The translations under genes were made by a program, and so were the position numbers. From IMG/VR virus record IMGVR_UViG_2561511241_000010: DNA of 37,472 bases; one strand, 5' to 3'. Shown here piece after piece: positions 698 to 29,437 of the stretch. The notes beneath the pieces were generated by a model. It searched no databases, had not been told where the DNA came from, and saw nothing but the letters and a program-made list of their open reading frames with translations. The DNA is from a virus (lineage: Duplodnaviria > Heunggongvirae > Uroviricota > Caudoviricetes). Each line of letters opens with the position of its first letter. Position 1 is the first letter of the stretch.

Positions 698-1060
698 GGG
701 GCTGATTCTGGATTCGACGGGATTTGCGAAACCCAAGGTGCATGCCGAGGGGCGGTTGGCCTCGTAAAAAGCCGCAAAAAATAGTCGCAAACGACGAAAA
801 CTACGCTTTAGCAGCTTAATAACCTGCTTAGAGCCCTCTCTCCCTAGCCTCCGCTCTTAGGACGGGGATCAAGAGAGGTCAAACCCAAAAGAGATCGCGT
901 GGAAGCCCTGCCTGGGGTTGAAGCGTTAAAACTTAATCAGGCTAGTTTGTTAGTGGCGTGTCCGTCCGCAGCTGGCAAGCGAATGTAAAGACTGACTAAG
1001 CATGTAGTACCGAGGATGTAGGAATTTCGGACGCGGGTTCAACTCCCGCCAGCTCCACCA
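698..1060 (+). ncRNA. ssrA: tmRNA (transfer-messenger RNA)
   Basis: Starts GGGGCTGATTCTGGATTCGACGGG and ends with tRNA-like GGTTCAACTCCCGCCAGCTCCACCA; internal tag frame 787..819 reads ANDENYALAA then TAA; 363 nt. Confidence 0.95.
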
Positions 1061-1185
1061 CTTTTGATAGGACTGCAACCGGACAGCGGCAATAAAAACA
1101 GCCACTTACGGACACTGACCAGACAGCAGGCAGACCGAGAAAAGACAAAAATATGCACGTGAAATGCACGTGCACTTTAAAAGAA

Positions 1186-1218
1186 CCCCAGATTTCACGG
1201 TCTGGGGTTTTTCTATTT
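1186..1218 (+). terminator. Rho-independent terminator-like hairpin downstream of ssrA
   Basis: CCCCAGA-TTTCACGG-TCTGGGG stem-loop followed by TTTTT. Confidence 0.5.
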
Positions 1219-1272
1219 GTAACTAAGGGTAACAAAAAACCCTCCCCCTTTCGCGTCTCGCTCGCCTTGACA

Positions 1273-1312
1273 CTGTTTATTTTTACAGTAAAAATACTGT
1301 ATACAAACACAG
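1273..1312 (+). promoter_or_regulatory. Two tandem LexA (SOS) boxes in the dinI-like promoter
   Basis: CTGT-N8-ACAG twice: CTGTttatttttACAG (1273..1288) and CTGTatacaaacACAG (1297..1312); TTGACA at 1267..1272 lies just upstream. Confidence 0.7.
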
Positions 1313-1331
1313 TGGTTTTCCGGAGGCTTTT

Positions 1332-1598
1332 ATGTTCGTTGAACTGGTTTATGACAAACGCAATGTAGAGGGGCTCGAAGGGGCCAGAGAAATTATTCTG
1401 GCCGAGCTGACGAAGCGGGTGCACCAGATTTTCCCTGACGCCGAAGTGAAGGTGAAGCCGATGCAAGCGAACGGCTTGAATAGCGATGCCAGCAAAAGTG
1501 ATCGTGAAAAGCTGAACCGCATGCTGGAGGAAATGTTTGATGAATCCGACATGTGGCTTGTGTCTGAGTTTCCGACAGTTCGCCAGGTGGGTATGTGA
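1332..1598 (+). CDS. dinI: DinI-family DNA-damage-inducible protein
   Basis: 88-aa translation has DinI-like character (acidic C-terminus ending DMWLVSEFP); GGAGG ribosome-binding site at 1322..1326; LexA boxes upstream. Confidence 0.75.
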   Translation: MFVELVYDKRNVEGLEGAREIILAELTKRVHQIFPDAEVKVKPMQANGLNSDASKSDREKLNRMLEEMFDESDMWLVSEFPTVRQVGM

Positions 1599-1640
1599 CA
1601 AAATCTGGCAGCCATCAATTATCTGGCTGCCAACATTTAA

Positions 1641-2909
1641 TTACGAACCAGATTCATTCTCCGCAGCTTCCAAAGCTTCTTCCTGTCGTTGATTCCATAC
1701 ACTGTTTTCAGGCATGTCGAGTCGCACATCGATCCAGCTATTGGCAGGAACATCTATAGGAGCCCCTTTCGTTTTAACAATTTCTCCTTCTTCGCTAAGT
1801 ATGTATTTGCGCTTAAAAAGCCGAATCGTCAGCCCACCGCTTTCTGTTTGCTCAGCTTCAACTACACCCAGTTCTCCCATTCCACCTGGGTCCATTGGCG
1901 GCAGCAGCTGCCAGCCTTCTGATGCCAGGCCTGCCGAACCAGTCAGCAAATAGATACCTACATCTAGCCGGGAAATTTTGATTCCCTCTGCCTCAGCATT
2001 AGCCGTACCGCATCCGCACCAGATAAAATCATTTTCATCAATATCTGTGCGCTGATTCTCGTTCTGAGATTTCACGATTCTGGCCACCGGCGAAGCTGCT
2101 TTCAGCGTGCCATCGGAGGCTTTAGTGGTATTTTCAGAAGTGTAAACAACTGAGCCTGGCTTCACAGACAGCATTGTTGAGAATGCATCGGTGCCATTAT
2201 TTCTTCCTGCAATCTGGTAAGAGACGGTACCACCAATCCCTGCGACACCTGCCCTGAAACGAGGAGTTCCGTTAACCATCACCGTATGAGCCCATACACT
2301 ACCAACAGTTGAAAGTCCTTCAACGGTGAAAGCGTAAGGGTTACCAGCGATACCGGCGATATTCAGGGCATTCGTTAACGTTCCTCCGCCAGTACCAAGA
2401 GCACCAAGTGCTGTTAGCGCTTCATTAGCTGTTTTCGCTCCCGTACCGCCCTGAGCGATGCTGAGAGCAGTTGTTAATCCGCTCAGGCTGGTAATGTCGC
2501 TGTTTGCCCCTTTCTTCGCCAGCGATTTCTGAGCCGGTACCGTGACGGCCACGCCGTTAATCGTGATAGTGACATCTGTAGTACCGTTCATCACATCAGC
2601 GAAGCCACTCATGTAACGCTGGTACATCGTGAACGTTTCAGCAATATCCTGTGCCAGGCCGTCAACGCTCAGGCTGTCGCTCAGAAGAATGGCGTATTTG
2701 GTTCCAGCTGGGATAGCAGGGCTTGCCGCTGGCGTAACGGTGAGACTGGTTGCGCTAACGATGGCGGTAATCTGAAAAACCTGCGCTGGACTGGTCATTG
2801 CAATAACTGTGCAGCCGTTGCGGATCAGAGAACCTGCGGCGGTAAAATTAGTACCTGTGCCGGTGATATTGTTACCACTAATAGCAATGGTGCCTGTTGT
2901 GTAAATCAT
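1641..2909 (-). CDS. Tail fibre protein
   Basis: 422 aa, Gly/Thr/Ala-rich repetitive N-terminal region typical of phage fibre shafts; last gene of the tail module; GAGGTAG ribosome-binding site. Confidence 0.6.
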   Translation of the reverse strand: MIYTTGTIAISGNNITGTGTNFTAAGSLIRNGCTVIAMTSPAQVFQITAIVSATSLTVTPAASPAIPAGTKYAILLSDSLSVDGLAQDIAETFTMYQRYMSGFADVMNGTTDVTITINGVAVTVPAQKSLAKKGANSDITSLSGLTTALSIAQGGTGAKTANEALTALGALGTGGGTLTNALNIAGIAGNPYAFTVEGLSTVGSVWAHTVMVNGTPRFRAGVAGIGGTVSYQIAGRNNGTDAFSTMLSVKPGSVVYTSENTTKASDGTLKAASPVARIVKSQNENQRTDIDENDFIWCGCGTANAEAEGIKISRLDVGIYLLTGSAGLASEGWQLLPPMDPGGMGELGVVEAEQTESGGLTIRLFKRKYILSEEGEIVKTKGAPIDVPANSWIDVRLDMPENSVWNQRQEEALEAAENESGS

Positions 2910-3035
2910 GAACTACCTCACGATAATAACGATCGTTAAAAGCGATCAATCATGTAAAATTGATCGCTCATATCAATCTGACTATTTTTTAAAATTAAAT
3001 AAAATGGAAGTTCCCGCATAAACAGGAATGTTGAA

Positions 3036-3398
3036 ATGAAACTTTTATTCGCTGCAGCGTTTTTGCTTGTGGCTGGATGTACGAACAAACACACAGATAA
3101 CGCATTCCAGATGGATTACCCGGTTGATGCCTCTCGTTTATCGCTCGGTGGTGATATTCACGTAAATATCGACTGTGCCACCAAAGAGGTGGAAGTTATT
3201 TCAGACAGTAGCAACGGAATATTCAGCCGCCATATAAAAAAAAGGTTAAGTAATATTTGCTACAATAAACCGGATAAGCTGGATGTCGTTTATCGCTTTA
3301 ATTCAGCAAAGGGCGTGAAACAAGATATGATTGCAACTCATTACCCACGAGTTCCTCCCGTGTCAAATCCCAACAAACTGAGAGATGGGGATTCTTAG
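3036..3398 (+). CDS. Lipoprotein moron, antisense to the tail operon
   Basis: N-terminus MKLLFAAAFLLVAGC is a signal peptide with lipobox; AGGAA ribosome-binding site; AT-rich upstream region; 3' end overlaps the convergent ORF 3363..4004. Confidence 0.6.
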   Translation: MKLLFAAAFLLVAGCTNKHTDNAFQMDYPVDASRLSLGGDIHVNIDCATKEVEVISDSSNGIFSRHIKKRLSNICYNKPDKLDVVYRFNSAKGVKQDMIATHYPRVPPVSNPNKLRDGDS

Positions 3399-4004: not shown

Positions 4005-4303
4005 TGAAAGTTATACACCTCCACATTGAGTGTGATCGCAGGACTGCCGGTTGAGGGCAAATAGTAAGCTGTAAAACCGCCATTATAGGCGCGGCAGTGG
4101 TATTCGTTGACAGTGACGCCAGTCGACACAATTGAGATGAATGAGCCATCCTGGGTTATCCCGACGAAGGAAACGTTTTTCGACGTTTCCCCCGCAGCGA
4201 ATGTTACTGAGGTGCTTCCGATATACCGGATGGCATAATCACTCAAATCAACCGCTATGCGCCCTGCACTGTCCCAGCATTGCAACCCCTGTGGCATTAC
4301 CAT
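4001..4303 (-). CDS. Hypothetical protein downstream of J
   Basis: 100-aa ORF overlapping the J stop (4297..4303) and the next ORF. Confidence 0.45.
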   Translation of the reverse strand: MVMPQGLQCWDSAGRIAVDLSDYAIRYIGSTSVTFAAGETSKNVSFVGITQDGSFISIVSTGVTVNEYHCRAYNGGFTAYYLPSTGSPAITLNVEVYNFQ

Positions 4304-25620: not shown

Positions 25621-25659
25621 CTATTTTAAAGTCCCCACAAGTTGATAATTTGTGGGGAC
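25621..25659 (-). terminator. Terminator hairpin between the lysis operon and the moron
   Basis: Perfect 10-bp stem GTCCCCACAA/TTGTGGGGAC with 9-nt loop; T-rich tract follows on the minus strand. Confidence 0.5.
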
Positions 25660-25699
25660 AACCATTATCAAGCCCACTAGCAGGTGAGCTTTGTAATGG

Positions 25700-28636: not shown

Positions 28637-29437
28637 CTATTTGCTCCGATCATATAAATAAGTTGTCGCCTTCTCAAATTCCACTGCTGCGTGAAGCTCC
28701 CCCTGGCGCAGAGTGTCCACCAGCATTTCATAGAAGGGTTTCCAGTTGCGTGACCATGAGGACTGATGGAGGTCAGGGAGACGCTTCAGAATGGCGCGGT
28801 GTACCGTAGCCGAGGAGATAGCAGAGAAGCCATTACCAGAGCAACGTTCACACGTTTTGAAAACCGGTGCGCCGCGGTCTTTGGTCGCTTTGCGGTCCAA
28901 CACTTCGCCTTTACCGCCACACCTGCACCGGGCAAGGATCACTTTCTTTCCTCCGCATGTTCCGCAAACCCTATTCACCAGCTCATTTTTAATCTTCGGG
29001 GCCACAACTTCGGCACCGTCGGCGTCGAAAATACCAGGATGTTTAACCACATCCTCATTCCCGGAGATAAACCCGGTACCGCTGCAACTGTGACATGTCA
29101 CGCTGGTAGCCGCCGAACGGGAGTAATCAGCAAAGGCAAATTGTGCCAGCATCTGCATACACCATCCGAACTGCCCACCAGCTGCTTTGCGCACATTCTT
29201 CGGTGCGACATCCATCGCATATCGCGCCAGCGCCTGAACTGCGAGCTGTTCATCCGTTTTGCTGATTCCCGCTTTACCGAAGAACGCCGCCAGGCCGAAG
29301 CGCGCACGGCTGCTAGTGGTGCCAATTGCCGCCATTACATCTGTTCCTGTAAGGCGGTCCGGAGAGGTTCCTTTCACGTCGTCGCTGATGTGCATTCCTT
29401 GTGGACTAAAATGTTTGAGCGATGATTCCAGTTTCAT
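28637..29437 (-). CDS. Q-like late antitermination protein (zinc-finger)
   Basis: 266 aa with several CxxC pairs (CHSCSGTG, CGTCGG, CRCGG, CERCSG); located between replication genes and the lysis cassette, followed by a terminator. Confidence 0.5.
   Translation of the reverse strand: MKLESSLKHFSPQGMHISDDVKGTSPDRLTGTDVMAAIGTTSSRARFGLAAFFGKAGISKTDEQLAVQALARYAMDVAPKNVRKAAGGQFGWCMQMLAQFAFADYSRSAATSVTCHSCSGTGFISGNEDVVKHPGIFDADGAEVVAPKIKNELVNRVCGTCGGKKVILARCRCGGKGEVLDRKATKDRGAPVFKTCERCSGNGFSAISSATVHRAILKRLPDLHQSSWSRNWKPFYEMLVDTLRQGELHAAVEFEKATTYLYDRSK

Follow-up and report, generated by a model that had tools for sequence, protein, structure and literature searches.

An OxyR-type site with three Dam targets in an HK639-like prophage, a candidate epigenetic switch upstream of a lipoprotein gene

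In the 126-bp gap (2910-3035) that separates the divergent tail-fibre and lipoprotein genes of a lambdoid prophage lies a two-fold symmetric site carrying three GATC sequences, which we read, on a modest balance of probability and from sequence comparison, as an epigenetic switch worked by Dam and OxyR and acting on the lipoprotein, a moron. The window, that is, the whole 37,472-nucleotide stretch of DNA analysed here (IMG/VR virus record IMGVR_UViG_2561511241_000010), is a Q-type lambdoid prophage, kin of coliphage HK639 and inserted at ssrA. Dam/OxyR switches are textbook cases of heritable epigenetic bistability in enterobacteria, and to our knowledge the known loci are few: agn43, gtr and opvAB, with Mu mom as a regulated case. 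A literature search found no account of the present locus. The anatomy of the site, its likeness to proven OxyR/Dam operators, the pattern of its conservation and its recurrence in other phages can all be read directly from the sequences.

At its centre the site holds a perfect inverted repeat, which consists of two inner quarter-sites with their CAAT/ATTG flanks and lies inside a larger dyad, widening to 20-nt arms (2931-2950 and 2959-2978) at 80% complementarity. The repeat joins two half-sites that were scored against the OxyR dimer consensus ATAGnTnnnAnCTAT (as quoted in PMC2909390 and PMC4856963). The elements of the locus, with their strand where they have one, are as follows:

2931..2934: GATC1, in the outer quarter of half-site 1; kept in 69 of 70 distinct relatives
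2932-2946: OxyR-type half-site 1, ATCGTTAAAAGCGAT, matching 8 of 10 positions of ATAGnTnnnAnCTAT; centre at about -73 from the predicted lipoprotein start
2941..2968: perfect inverted repeat with 10-bp arms (2941-2950 and 2959-2968), AGCGATCAAT-N8-ATTGATCGCT
2942..2967: perfect 9-bp repeat, GCGATCAAT-N8-ATTGATCGC, found by sequence search
2944..2947: GATC2, in the inner quarter of half-site 1 and the left repeat arm, 13 bp from GATC1; kept in 70 of 70
2962..2965: GATC3, in the inner quarter of half-site 2 and the right repeat arm, 18 bp from GATC2; kept in 70 of 70
2963-2977: OxyR-type half-site 2, ATCGCTCATATCAAT, also 8 of 10; centre at about -42, abutting the predicted -35 hexamer
2978..3005, plus strand: predicted sigma-70 lipoprotein promoter CTGACT-N16-TAAAAT, the best on this strand in a consensus scan (-35 box 2978-2983, -10 box 3000-3005), with a putative start at about 3012
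1641..2909, minus strand: side tail-fibre gene (phrog_1591, Pfam PF25670), ATG at 2909, Shine-Dalgarno GAGG at 2919-2916
3036..3398, plus strand: lipoprotein moron gene, 120 aa, lipobox LVAGC (phrog_25729, a function-unknown family)

An earlier note, made from the letters of the window, had placed the 9-bp repeat at 2932..2957 and the third GATC at 2921. Repeat and triple both exist, and the repeat does lie in the intergenic region common to the divergent lipoprotein gene (2910..3035), but all these coordinates are 10 too low; the repeat thus stands 33-58 nt upstream of the tail-fibre start and not 23-48, and the three Dam sites, given as lying within 36 bp, span 35 bp.

How much can be drawn from such a cluster? 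The triple is the tightest of the window (the next-tightest spans 75 bp), its GATC1 lies 22 nt upstream of the tail-fibre ATG, and no second copy of the full repeat occurs in the window, up to 3 mismatches being allowed. Yet when the 164 GATCs are placed at random over 37,472 bp, 71% of the placements hold a triple within 35 bp, so that three neighbouring Dam sites, the argument of the earlier note, are not statistically unusual by themselves. The window has six places with a perfect inverted repeat of at least 9 bp and a spacer of 0-12 bp, where about 2 would be expected. By counts, the GATC clustering and the repeat are not, taken alone, beyond chance; the signal beyond chance is the conservation in relatives together with the bipartite OxyR-type match.

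The centres of the two half-sites are 31 bp apart, the pair is the window's only such match, and any pair at all appears in just 1% of Markov-1 shuffles. Counted in this way, the proven sites reach 8+8 (agn43, centres 32 bp apart), 7+7 (Mu mom, 31 bp) and 8/10/8 (gtr, 32 bp). In three of the four quarter-sites ATCG/CGAT takes the place of the consensus ATAG/CTAT, and these three are for this reason GATC targets of Dam; all three GATCs are in this way quarter-sites inside the OxyR-type half-sites. They are spaced by 13 and 18 bp in the window; Mu mom has the same two distances (18 and 13 bp), and agn43 has 19 and 13 bp. Both half-sites have the ATTGATCG-N7-CGATCAAT shape of OxyR(A) and OxyR(C) of P22 gtr (ATTG-ATCG-N7-CGAT-CAAT), and half-site 2 is nearly identical to OxyR(C), ATTGATCGCTTGTATCGATC. 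The sequences compared were:

agn43 operator (public record): ATAGAATAAAACGATCAATATCTATTTTATCGATCGTTTATATCGATCGAT, GATC spacing 19 and 13
Mu mom operator (public record): ATAGAAAACGACGATCGAATCAATTAAATCGATCGGTAATACAGATCGAT, GATC spacing 18 and 13
Window site, minus strand: GAGCGATCAATTTTACATGATTGATCGCTTTTAACGATCGTT, GATC spacing 18 and 13
P22 gtr half-site A: ATTG-ATCGGTAACAACGAT-CAAT
P22 gtr half-site B: ATAGATAAAAACTAT
P22 gtr half-site C: ATTG-ATCGCTTGTATCGAT-CAAA

Conservation among relatives follows the same design. Related loci were gathered to the number of 93 (six annotated phages and 87 contigs found via the lipoprotein); columns were analysed in 70 distinct sequences, and diversity (pi) in 78 distinct sequences aligned with MAFFT. 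In the main group of relatives the intergenic region is far better kept than the flanking genes, as invariant blocks with short variable stretches between them. The diversity values are:

Third codon positions of the lipoprotein gene (synonymous-like): pi 0.363
Ten consensus 'n' positions: pi 0.263
Twenty specified consensus positions: pi 0.024
Twelve GATC bases: pi 0.002

Columns 2936, 2938-2940, 2942, 2967, 2969, 2970 and 2973 are variable, and all are 'n' positions of the consensus; in half-site 1 the variable columns (2936, 2938-2940 and 2942) are exactly these 'n' positions, while in half-site 2 column 2968 (T, position 6) is moderately variable. GATC1 is lost in one of the 70 distinct sequences, and a change to ATAG/CTAT is seen in none. 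Because no relative moves to this better OxyR match, selection would seem to act on GATC itself, which points to the GATCs being held as Dam targets.

To follow the recurrence of the site in other phages, the inner repeat, CGATCAAT-N8-ATTGATCG, was searched for in viral contigs as an exact pattern; it is present in 18 other sequence contexts. Seven of these match 7-10 of the ten consensus positions that are not forced by the search, and the other 11 score 1-4, which is chance level. The contexts with full flanks, at least seven in number, mostly come after tail-fibre genes, just upstream of genes for small envelope proteins or Dam-like methylases. In P2-like phages the site, again with a centre spacing of 31 bp, occupies the Z/fun moron slot, with the tail-fibre assembly gene (G) on one side and the sheath gene (FI) on the other, 53 nt upstream of the gene for a 40-aa membrane protein (MTILLWIVGGLAAWW...; L108:7012-7222 and about 40 similar contigs). 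In a second family (family 1) it comes after a tail-spike gene and a second gene of 101 aa and stands before the gene for a 39-44-aa membrane or lipobox peptide, all on one strand. In these two groups, as in contig L209, it is about 40-90 nt from the start codon of the small envelope protein and near tail-fibre genes. In a family with Dam-like methylases, and in contig L187, the site also follows tail-fibre genes and is directly upstream of a DNA methylase gene, either D12-class and Dam-like (Pfam PF02086) or of another kind, which is the position of mom in Mu. The sites in methylase contexts are:

L200:7513-7570
L102:2806-2860
L158:5496
L098:1265
L187:13800

With a Dam-sensitive operator placed before a Dam-like gene, a feedback loop may be suspected. 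The L102 site has an Acyl_transf_3 (O-antigen acetylase-like) gene as its divergent neighbour. Wherever a gene lies close downstream, it is on what is here the lipoprotein side and starts within about 40-90 nt, and the opposite side varies, being a tail-fibre start, a P2 late promoter region or a gene end.

The regulated gene is thus likely to be the lipoprotein moron and not the tail fibre, because the close downstream genes lie on the lipoprotein side elsewhere. The earlier note had left the choice between the two; a constant neighbour on that side in three other contexts favours the lipoprotein and makes the tail fibre less likely. Half-site 2 abuts the predicted -35 box CTGACT (2978-2983) of the lipoprotein promoter, the hexamers of which are near-invariant in relatives (pi 0.010) around a variable spacer (pi 0.092); TAGAAT, which alone replaces the -10 box in relatives, retains the key bases. 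This pattern supports the predicted promoter. Transcription of the tail-fibre gene probably comes from read-through of the Q-dependent late operon; at 28637-29437 there is a Q-like gene. One more element of the gap is a hairpin that overlaps the lipoprotein ribosome-binding site:

3011..3028, minus strand: terminator-like hairpin TTCCTGTTTATGCGGGAA with a T-rich tail, its stem conserved and its loop variable in relatives

The plus-strand form of this hairpin would sequester the lipoprotein Shine-Dalgarno less well.

Several known systems resemble the locus, each in its own way. agn43 (flu), in the E. coli cryptic prophage CP4-44, has like the window one OxyR tetramer site with three GATCs, and its half-sites (8+8 of 20) score the same. 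The agn43 site begins ACGATCAAT, the 9-mer arm variant of many relatives, and it regulates an envelope protein encoded on prophage DNA, as is proposed here for the lipoprotein. Contrary to the window site, which is upstream and abuts the predicted -35 box, it overlaps the -10 box and start and reaches into the leader, OxyR being a repressor (PMC2909390). Its centres are 32 bp apart instead of 31, and it has no perfect inner palindrome. Mu mom is identical to the window both in GATC spacing (18 and 13 bp) and in its 31-bp half-site spacing, and it is likewise a phage element just past the tail-fibre genes; it is at its position, moreover, that the related contigs carry the same inner repeat before Dam-like methylase genes. 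The Mu site is reportedly further upstream of a C-activated late promoter, at which OxyR represses, whereas the window site neighbours a sigma-70-type moron promoter on the strand opposite the late genes. Although mom is controlled by Dam and OxyR, phase variation of mom is not known (PMC2909390).

P22 gtrABC has the half-site form ATTGATCG-N7-CGATCAAT found in the window, with 13-bp GATC pairs within a half-site, its GATCs being at -110/-97 and -46/-33 (PMC2909390). Like the window's lipoprotein, it is a prophage moron altering the cell envelope and adjoining a tail-spike or tail-fibre gene. It differs in its three half-sites and four GATCs, which give OxyR two alternative positions (AB, the on state, and BC, the off state). 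The window, with its two half-sites and three GATCs, showed on sequence reading no further half-site at 31-32 bp outward from the pair on either side. The gtr half-sites are 32 bp apart, against 31 in the window, and the promoter-proximal gtr pair, whose centres are at about -70 and -38 by our own reading, represses. In opvAB, OxyR half-sites at -75 and -43 stand immediately upstream of the -35 box, and OxyR activates (PMC4856963); these values, compared by published positions only, are close to the predicted -73 and -42 of the window. opvAB has four half-sites and four GATCs, only two of them inside half-sites, which is unlike the window. As far as the sequences can be compared, the site is thus like agn43 and Mu mom in type, closest to P22 gtr in half-site sequence and like opvAB in promoter position.

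The earlier note had invoked pap along with agn43 and gtr as models of a Dam-dependent, possibly OxyR-dependent switch. The comparison supports the agn43/gtr type of element, but the analogy with pap and Lrp misfits. A pap-type Lrp/Dam switch needs two CGATCTTTT-type GATC boxes about 102 bp apart within two sets of Lrp sites. The locus, with its spacings of 13 and 18 bp, has no GATC box of the pap type, and the next GATCs, at 2823 and 3466, are both inside coding regions.

In the mechanism that we propose, the inverted repeat would lie in the middle of a two-fold symmetric site at which the host's LysR-type OxyR binds as a tetramer (dimer of dimers), with half-sites 1 and 2 directly upstream of the -35 box of the lipoprotein's own promoter. 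If agn43, Mu mom, gtr and opvAB are a guide, OxyR would be kept off methylated GATCs, and once bound it would block their methylation. Dam and OxyR would then compete after every round of replication, so that a lysogen population would come to hold two heritable states, one methylated and one OxyR-bound, and the lipoprotein would be on in only one of them. In this scheme we infer OxyR as the binder, the Dam sensitivity of the site, the promoter and its start, the sign of regulation and the bistability. The sign is not readable from sequence, because the opvAB pair activates whereas the promoter-proximal pair of gtr represses. Since the half-site centres (about -73 and -42) match C and D of opvAB (-75 and -43), we slightly favour the OxyR-bound, unmethylated state as the ON state.

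Some points weigh against a Dam/OxyR switch at this place. OxyR binding, the methylation state and expression are predictions. The start of the lipoprotein transcript is also only predicted, and TTGATC-N17-TATTTT on the plus strand or TTGATA-N16-CATGAT on the minus strand could be drawn as promoters instead. There is one tetramer site only, and such a site may, as in Mu mom, be regulated by Dam and OxyR without being phase-variable. The half-sites are 31 bp apart against the canonical 32 bp for reduced OxyR (gtr, opvAB, agn43), although in Mu mom the distance is 31 as well. The spacer bases TAAAATTG with CAAT, and the block 2918-2930, are near-invariant and unaccounted for by the simple consensus. 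Finally, a subgroup of relatives whose lipoproteins are 67-72% identical (L074, L077, L079, L082-L084, L087, L088 and L090) has an unrelated intergenic region, in which no GATC cluster or OxyR-like site was found and which has, shortly before the tail-fibre ribosome-binding site, a canonical terminator on the minus strand (CCTCGCTCCGGCGGGGTTTTTT). Because this subgroup retains the lipoprotein and tail-fibre pair, the switch would be dispensable there, and the element is best described, from this distribution, as a modular and dispensable regulatory cassette.

Among the alternatives, the least unlikely is that the site is the operator of a different symmetric protein, for instance some other regulator of the LysR type or an unknown factor of the host or the phage, with the GATCs incidental to it or modulating it. 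The T-N11-A core is indeed generic to LysR-type sites, and both the 31-bp spacing and the conserved spacer bases outside the OxyR consensus would be at home in such an operator. The nearest sequence matches (gtr A and C, agn43 and Mu mom) are however proven OxyR binders (PMC2909390), recurrence across lambdoid, P2-like and Mu-like phages speaks for a conserved host factor, and no phage-encoded LysR-type regulator turned up among the scanned window proteins. On balance this explanation is improbable.

Distinctly more improbable is a role for the repeat as a minus-strand RNA hairpin upstream of the tail-fibre ribosome-binding site, be it as a weak terminator or attenuator, as a processing or stability element or, with a Shine-Dalgarno-AUG hairpin, in translational control. 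The minus-strand RNA 3035-2900 does fold at -37.5 kcal/mol (z = -5.3), UUUUAA comes directly after the hairpin, the relatives without the site have their canonical terminator in the same place, and a few changes are compensatory (three G-C at 2941/2968 and three A-T at 2942/2967). These are nonetheless outnumbered by uncompensated changes, and those that break the pair on one or the other strand occur in both directions; there are 25 uncompensated A-C combinations at 2942/2967 (G-U on the minus strand), and the 8-bp core of the stem is invariant, with no covariation. Blocks outside the hairpin are equally conserved, and Rfam gave no match at E <= 1 in 2700-3200. The P2-like copies of the palindrome have no U-tract on either strand, and an RNA hairpin leaves unexplained why the variable columns match the 'n' positions of the OxyR consensus. 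A plain intrinsic terminator, which needs a G+C-rich hairpin with a run of U directly behind it, was likewise rejected: the terminator scan did not call the repeat hairpin, which on the minus strand is followed by no more than UUUUAA and on the plus strand by no U-run.

A shade less probable again is that nothing more than promoter elements is present, the arms being back-to-back, divergent TTGATC -35 boxes whose strength is tuned directly by Dam, as in IS10 and dnaA. TTGATC, which both arms hold, matches TTGACA at 4 of 6 positions, and the two alternative promoters given above can be drawn from it or near it. But the -10 box of the leftward one falls within the most variable columns, for which reason it is also disfavoured as a tail-fibre promoter, or else its start would fall inside the Shine-Dalgarno. 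The conserved and variable columns fit ATAGnTnnnAnCTAT over 47 bp, far beyond two hexamers, and the repeat is accompanied by full OxyR-type flanks in 7 independent contexts. As for a functionless chance palindrome and GATC cluster in an AT-rich intergenic region, one window should hold by chance about 1-2 GATC triples within 35 bp, and about as many perfect 9-bp repeats, but near-invariance in 78 relatives with 36% synonymous-site difference and recurrence in unrelated phages contradict chance and make this next to negligible.

Other candidates were discarded more directly. A phage repressor operator does not fit a repeat that is unique in the window (up to 3 mismatches) and a half-site 8-mer with 31 matches (up to 1 mismatch) against 34.5 expected. 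The same uniqueness, together with the fact that no invertase was found among the scanned window proteins, disposes of a crossover site for tail-fibre inversion (Gin/Cin/Fin); in phage LLS the annotated Fin sites are elsewhere, inside tail-fibre genes, and the GATC site is still present. FNR (TTGAT-N4-ATCAA), IHF, Fis, Fur, LexA, CpxR, PhoP and ModE misfit in spacing, as judged by eye from their consensus sequences. No dam gene was found among the scanned window proteins.

What the proposed Dam/OxyR switch would control can be approached through structure. The AlphaFold model of the 120-aa lipoprotein has a mean pLDDT of 72, with a core at 83-92. The nine best PDB matches of this model in Foldseek are TonB or FusB C-terminal domains, including TonB with FhuA and BtuB, the best E-value being 3e-3 and the target-normalised TM-scores about 0.46-0.61. 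A Pfam scan gave no family for the lipoprotein or for the two genes downstream of J, and PHROGs gave only a function-unknown family. The model suggests that a periplasm-facing lipoprotein may mimic the TonB C-terminal domain and block a TonB-dependent receptor that serves as a phage receptor. Superinfection exclusion by T5 Llp (PMC9586334) is comparable in outcome to such a receptor block. If blocking a receptor is costly, which is a hypothesis, phase-variable expression would be sensible.

A broader proposal, which we hold only tentatively and consider rather doubtful, is that of a portable OxyR/Dam cassette, recruited again and again by unrelated temperate phages past their tail-fibre genes (HK639-like lambdoids, P2-like phages and phages with a methylase after the tail-fibre genes at the Mu mom position). 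It would make envelope morons or the phages' own Dam-like methylases phase-variable; here, the lipoprotein would mimic the TonB C-terminal domain and block a TonB-dependent receptor. If this were true, the cost of superinfection exclusion would be borne by only part of the lysogen population. As to the switch itself, if it works as predicted, it would add a family of prophage-borne switches, with one operator reused before small envelope proteins and phage Dam-like methylases across phage lineages, and it would offer a testable case of bet-hedging in prophage-conferred surface or receptor modification. Pairs of ATTGATCG-N7-CGATCAAT placed 31-32 bp apart would then be a search signature for further switches. 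Most members of this family come from Enterobacter prophages; of 5,426 complete E. coli genomes, 2 have one.

The prophage setting can be described from its neighbours. E. coli ETEC1749 (NZ_CP122712.1) is 100% identical to the window across 521 compared bases, its copies of GATC1 to GATC3 lying at about 1280654-1280657, 1280641-1280644 and 1280623-1280626, and smpB, ssrA and dinI stand in this order ahead of the tail-fibre gene. Host DNA opens the window, with smpB at 1-483 and dinI at 1332-1598 (plus strand); ssrA is at roughly 700-1060, between the two, its position being transferred from the identical ETEC1749 region. The mechanical open reading frame (ORF) at 996..1601 (minus strand) is not a tail-fibre assembly gene. 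Homology with HK639-type phages (L001-L006) at the nucleotide level stops about 30 nt into the tail-fibre gene (window about 2879-2909), and among relatives an identical intergenic region stands beside differing tail-fibre N-termini; tail-fibre modules are therefore swapped right at the start codon. In the predicted minus-strand RNA of window 2900-2931, the tail-fibre Shine-Dalgarno pairs with the AUG (AUCGUGAGGUAGUUCAUGAU). In the HK639 record (L001, HM208537.1), a 52-aa antisense ORF, HK639_26 (4058-4216), is annotated over the intergenic region; the conserved 120-aa lipoprotein gene is annotated in other records and not in this one. The convergent dinI and tail-fibre genes have between them, at 1606, a perfect 9-bp inverted repeat (TGGCAGCCA-N9) that may terminate transcription in both directions. 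The background computation also gave perfect inverted repeats of 9-10 bp at 25631-25660 and 1184-1210 (GTCCCCACAA-N9 and AACCCCAGA-N8).

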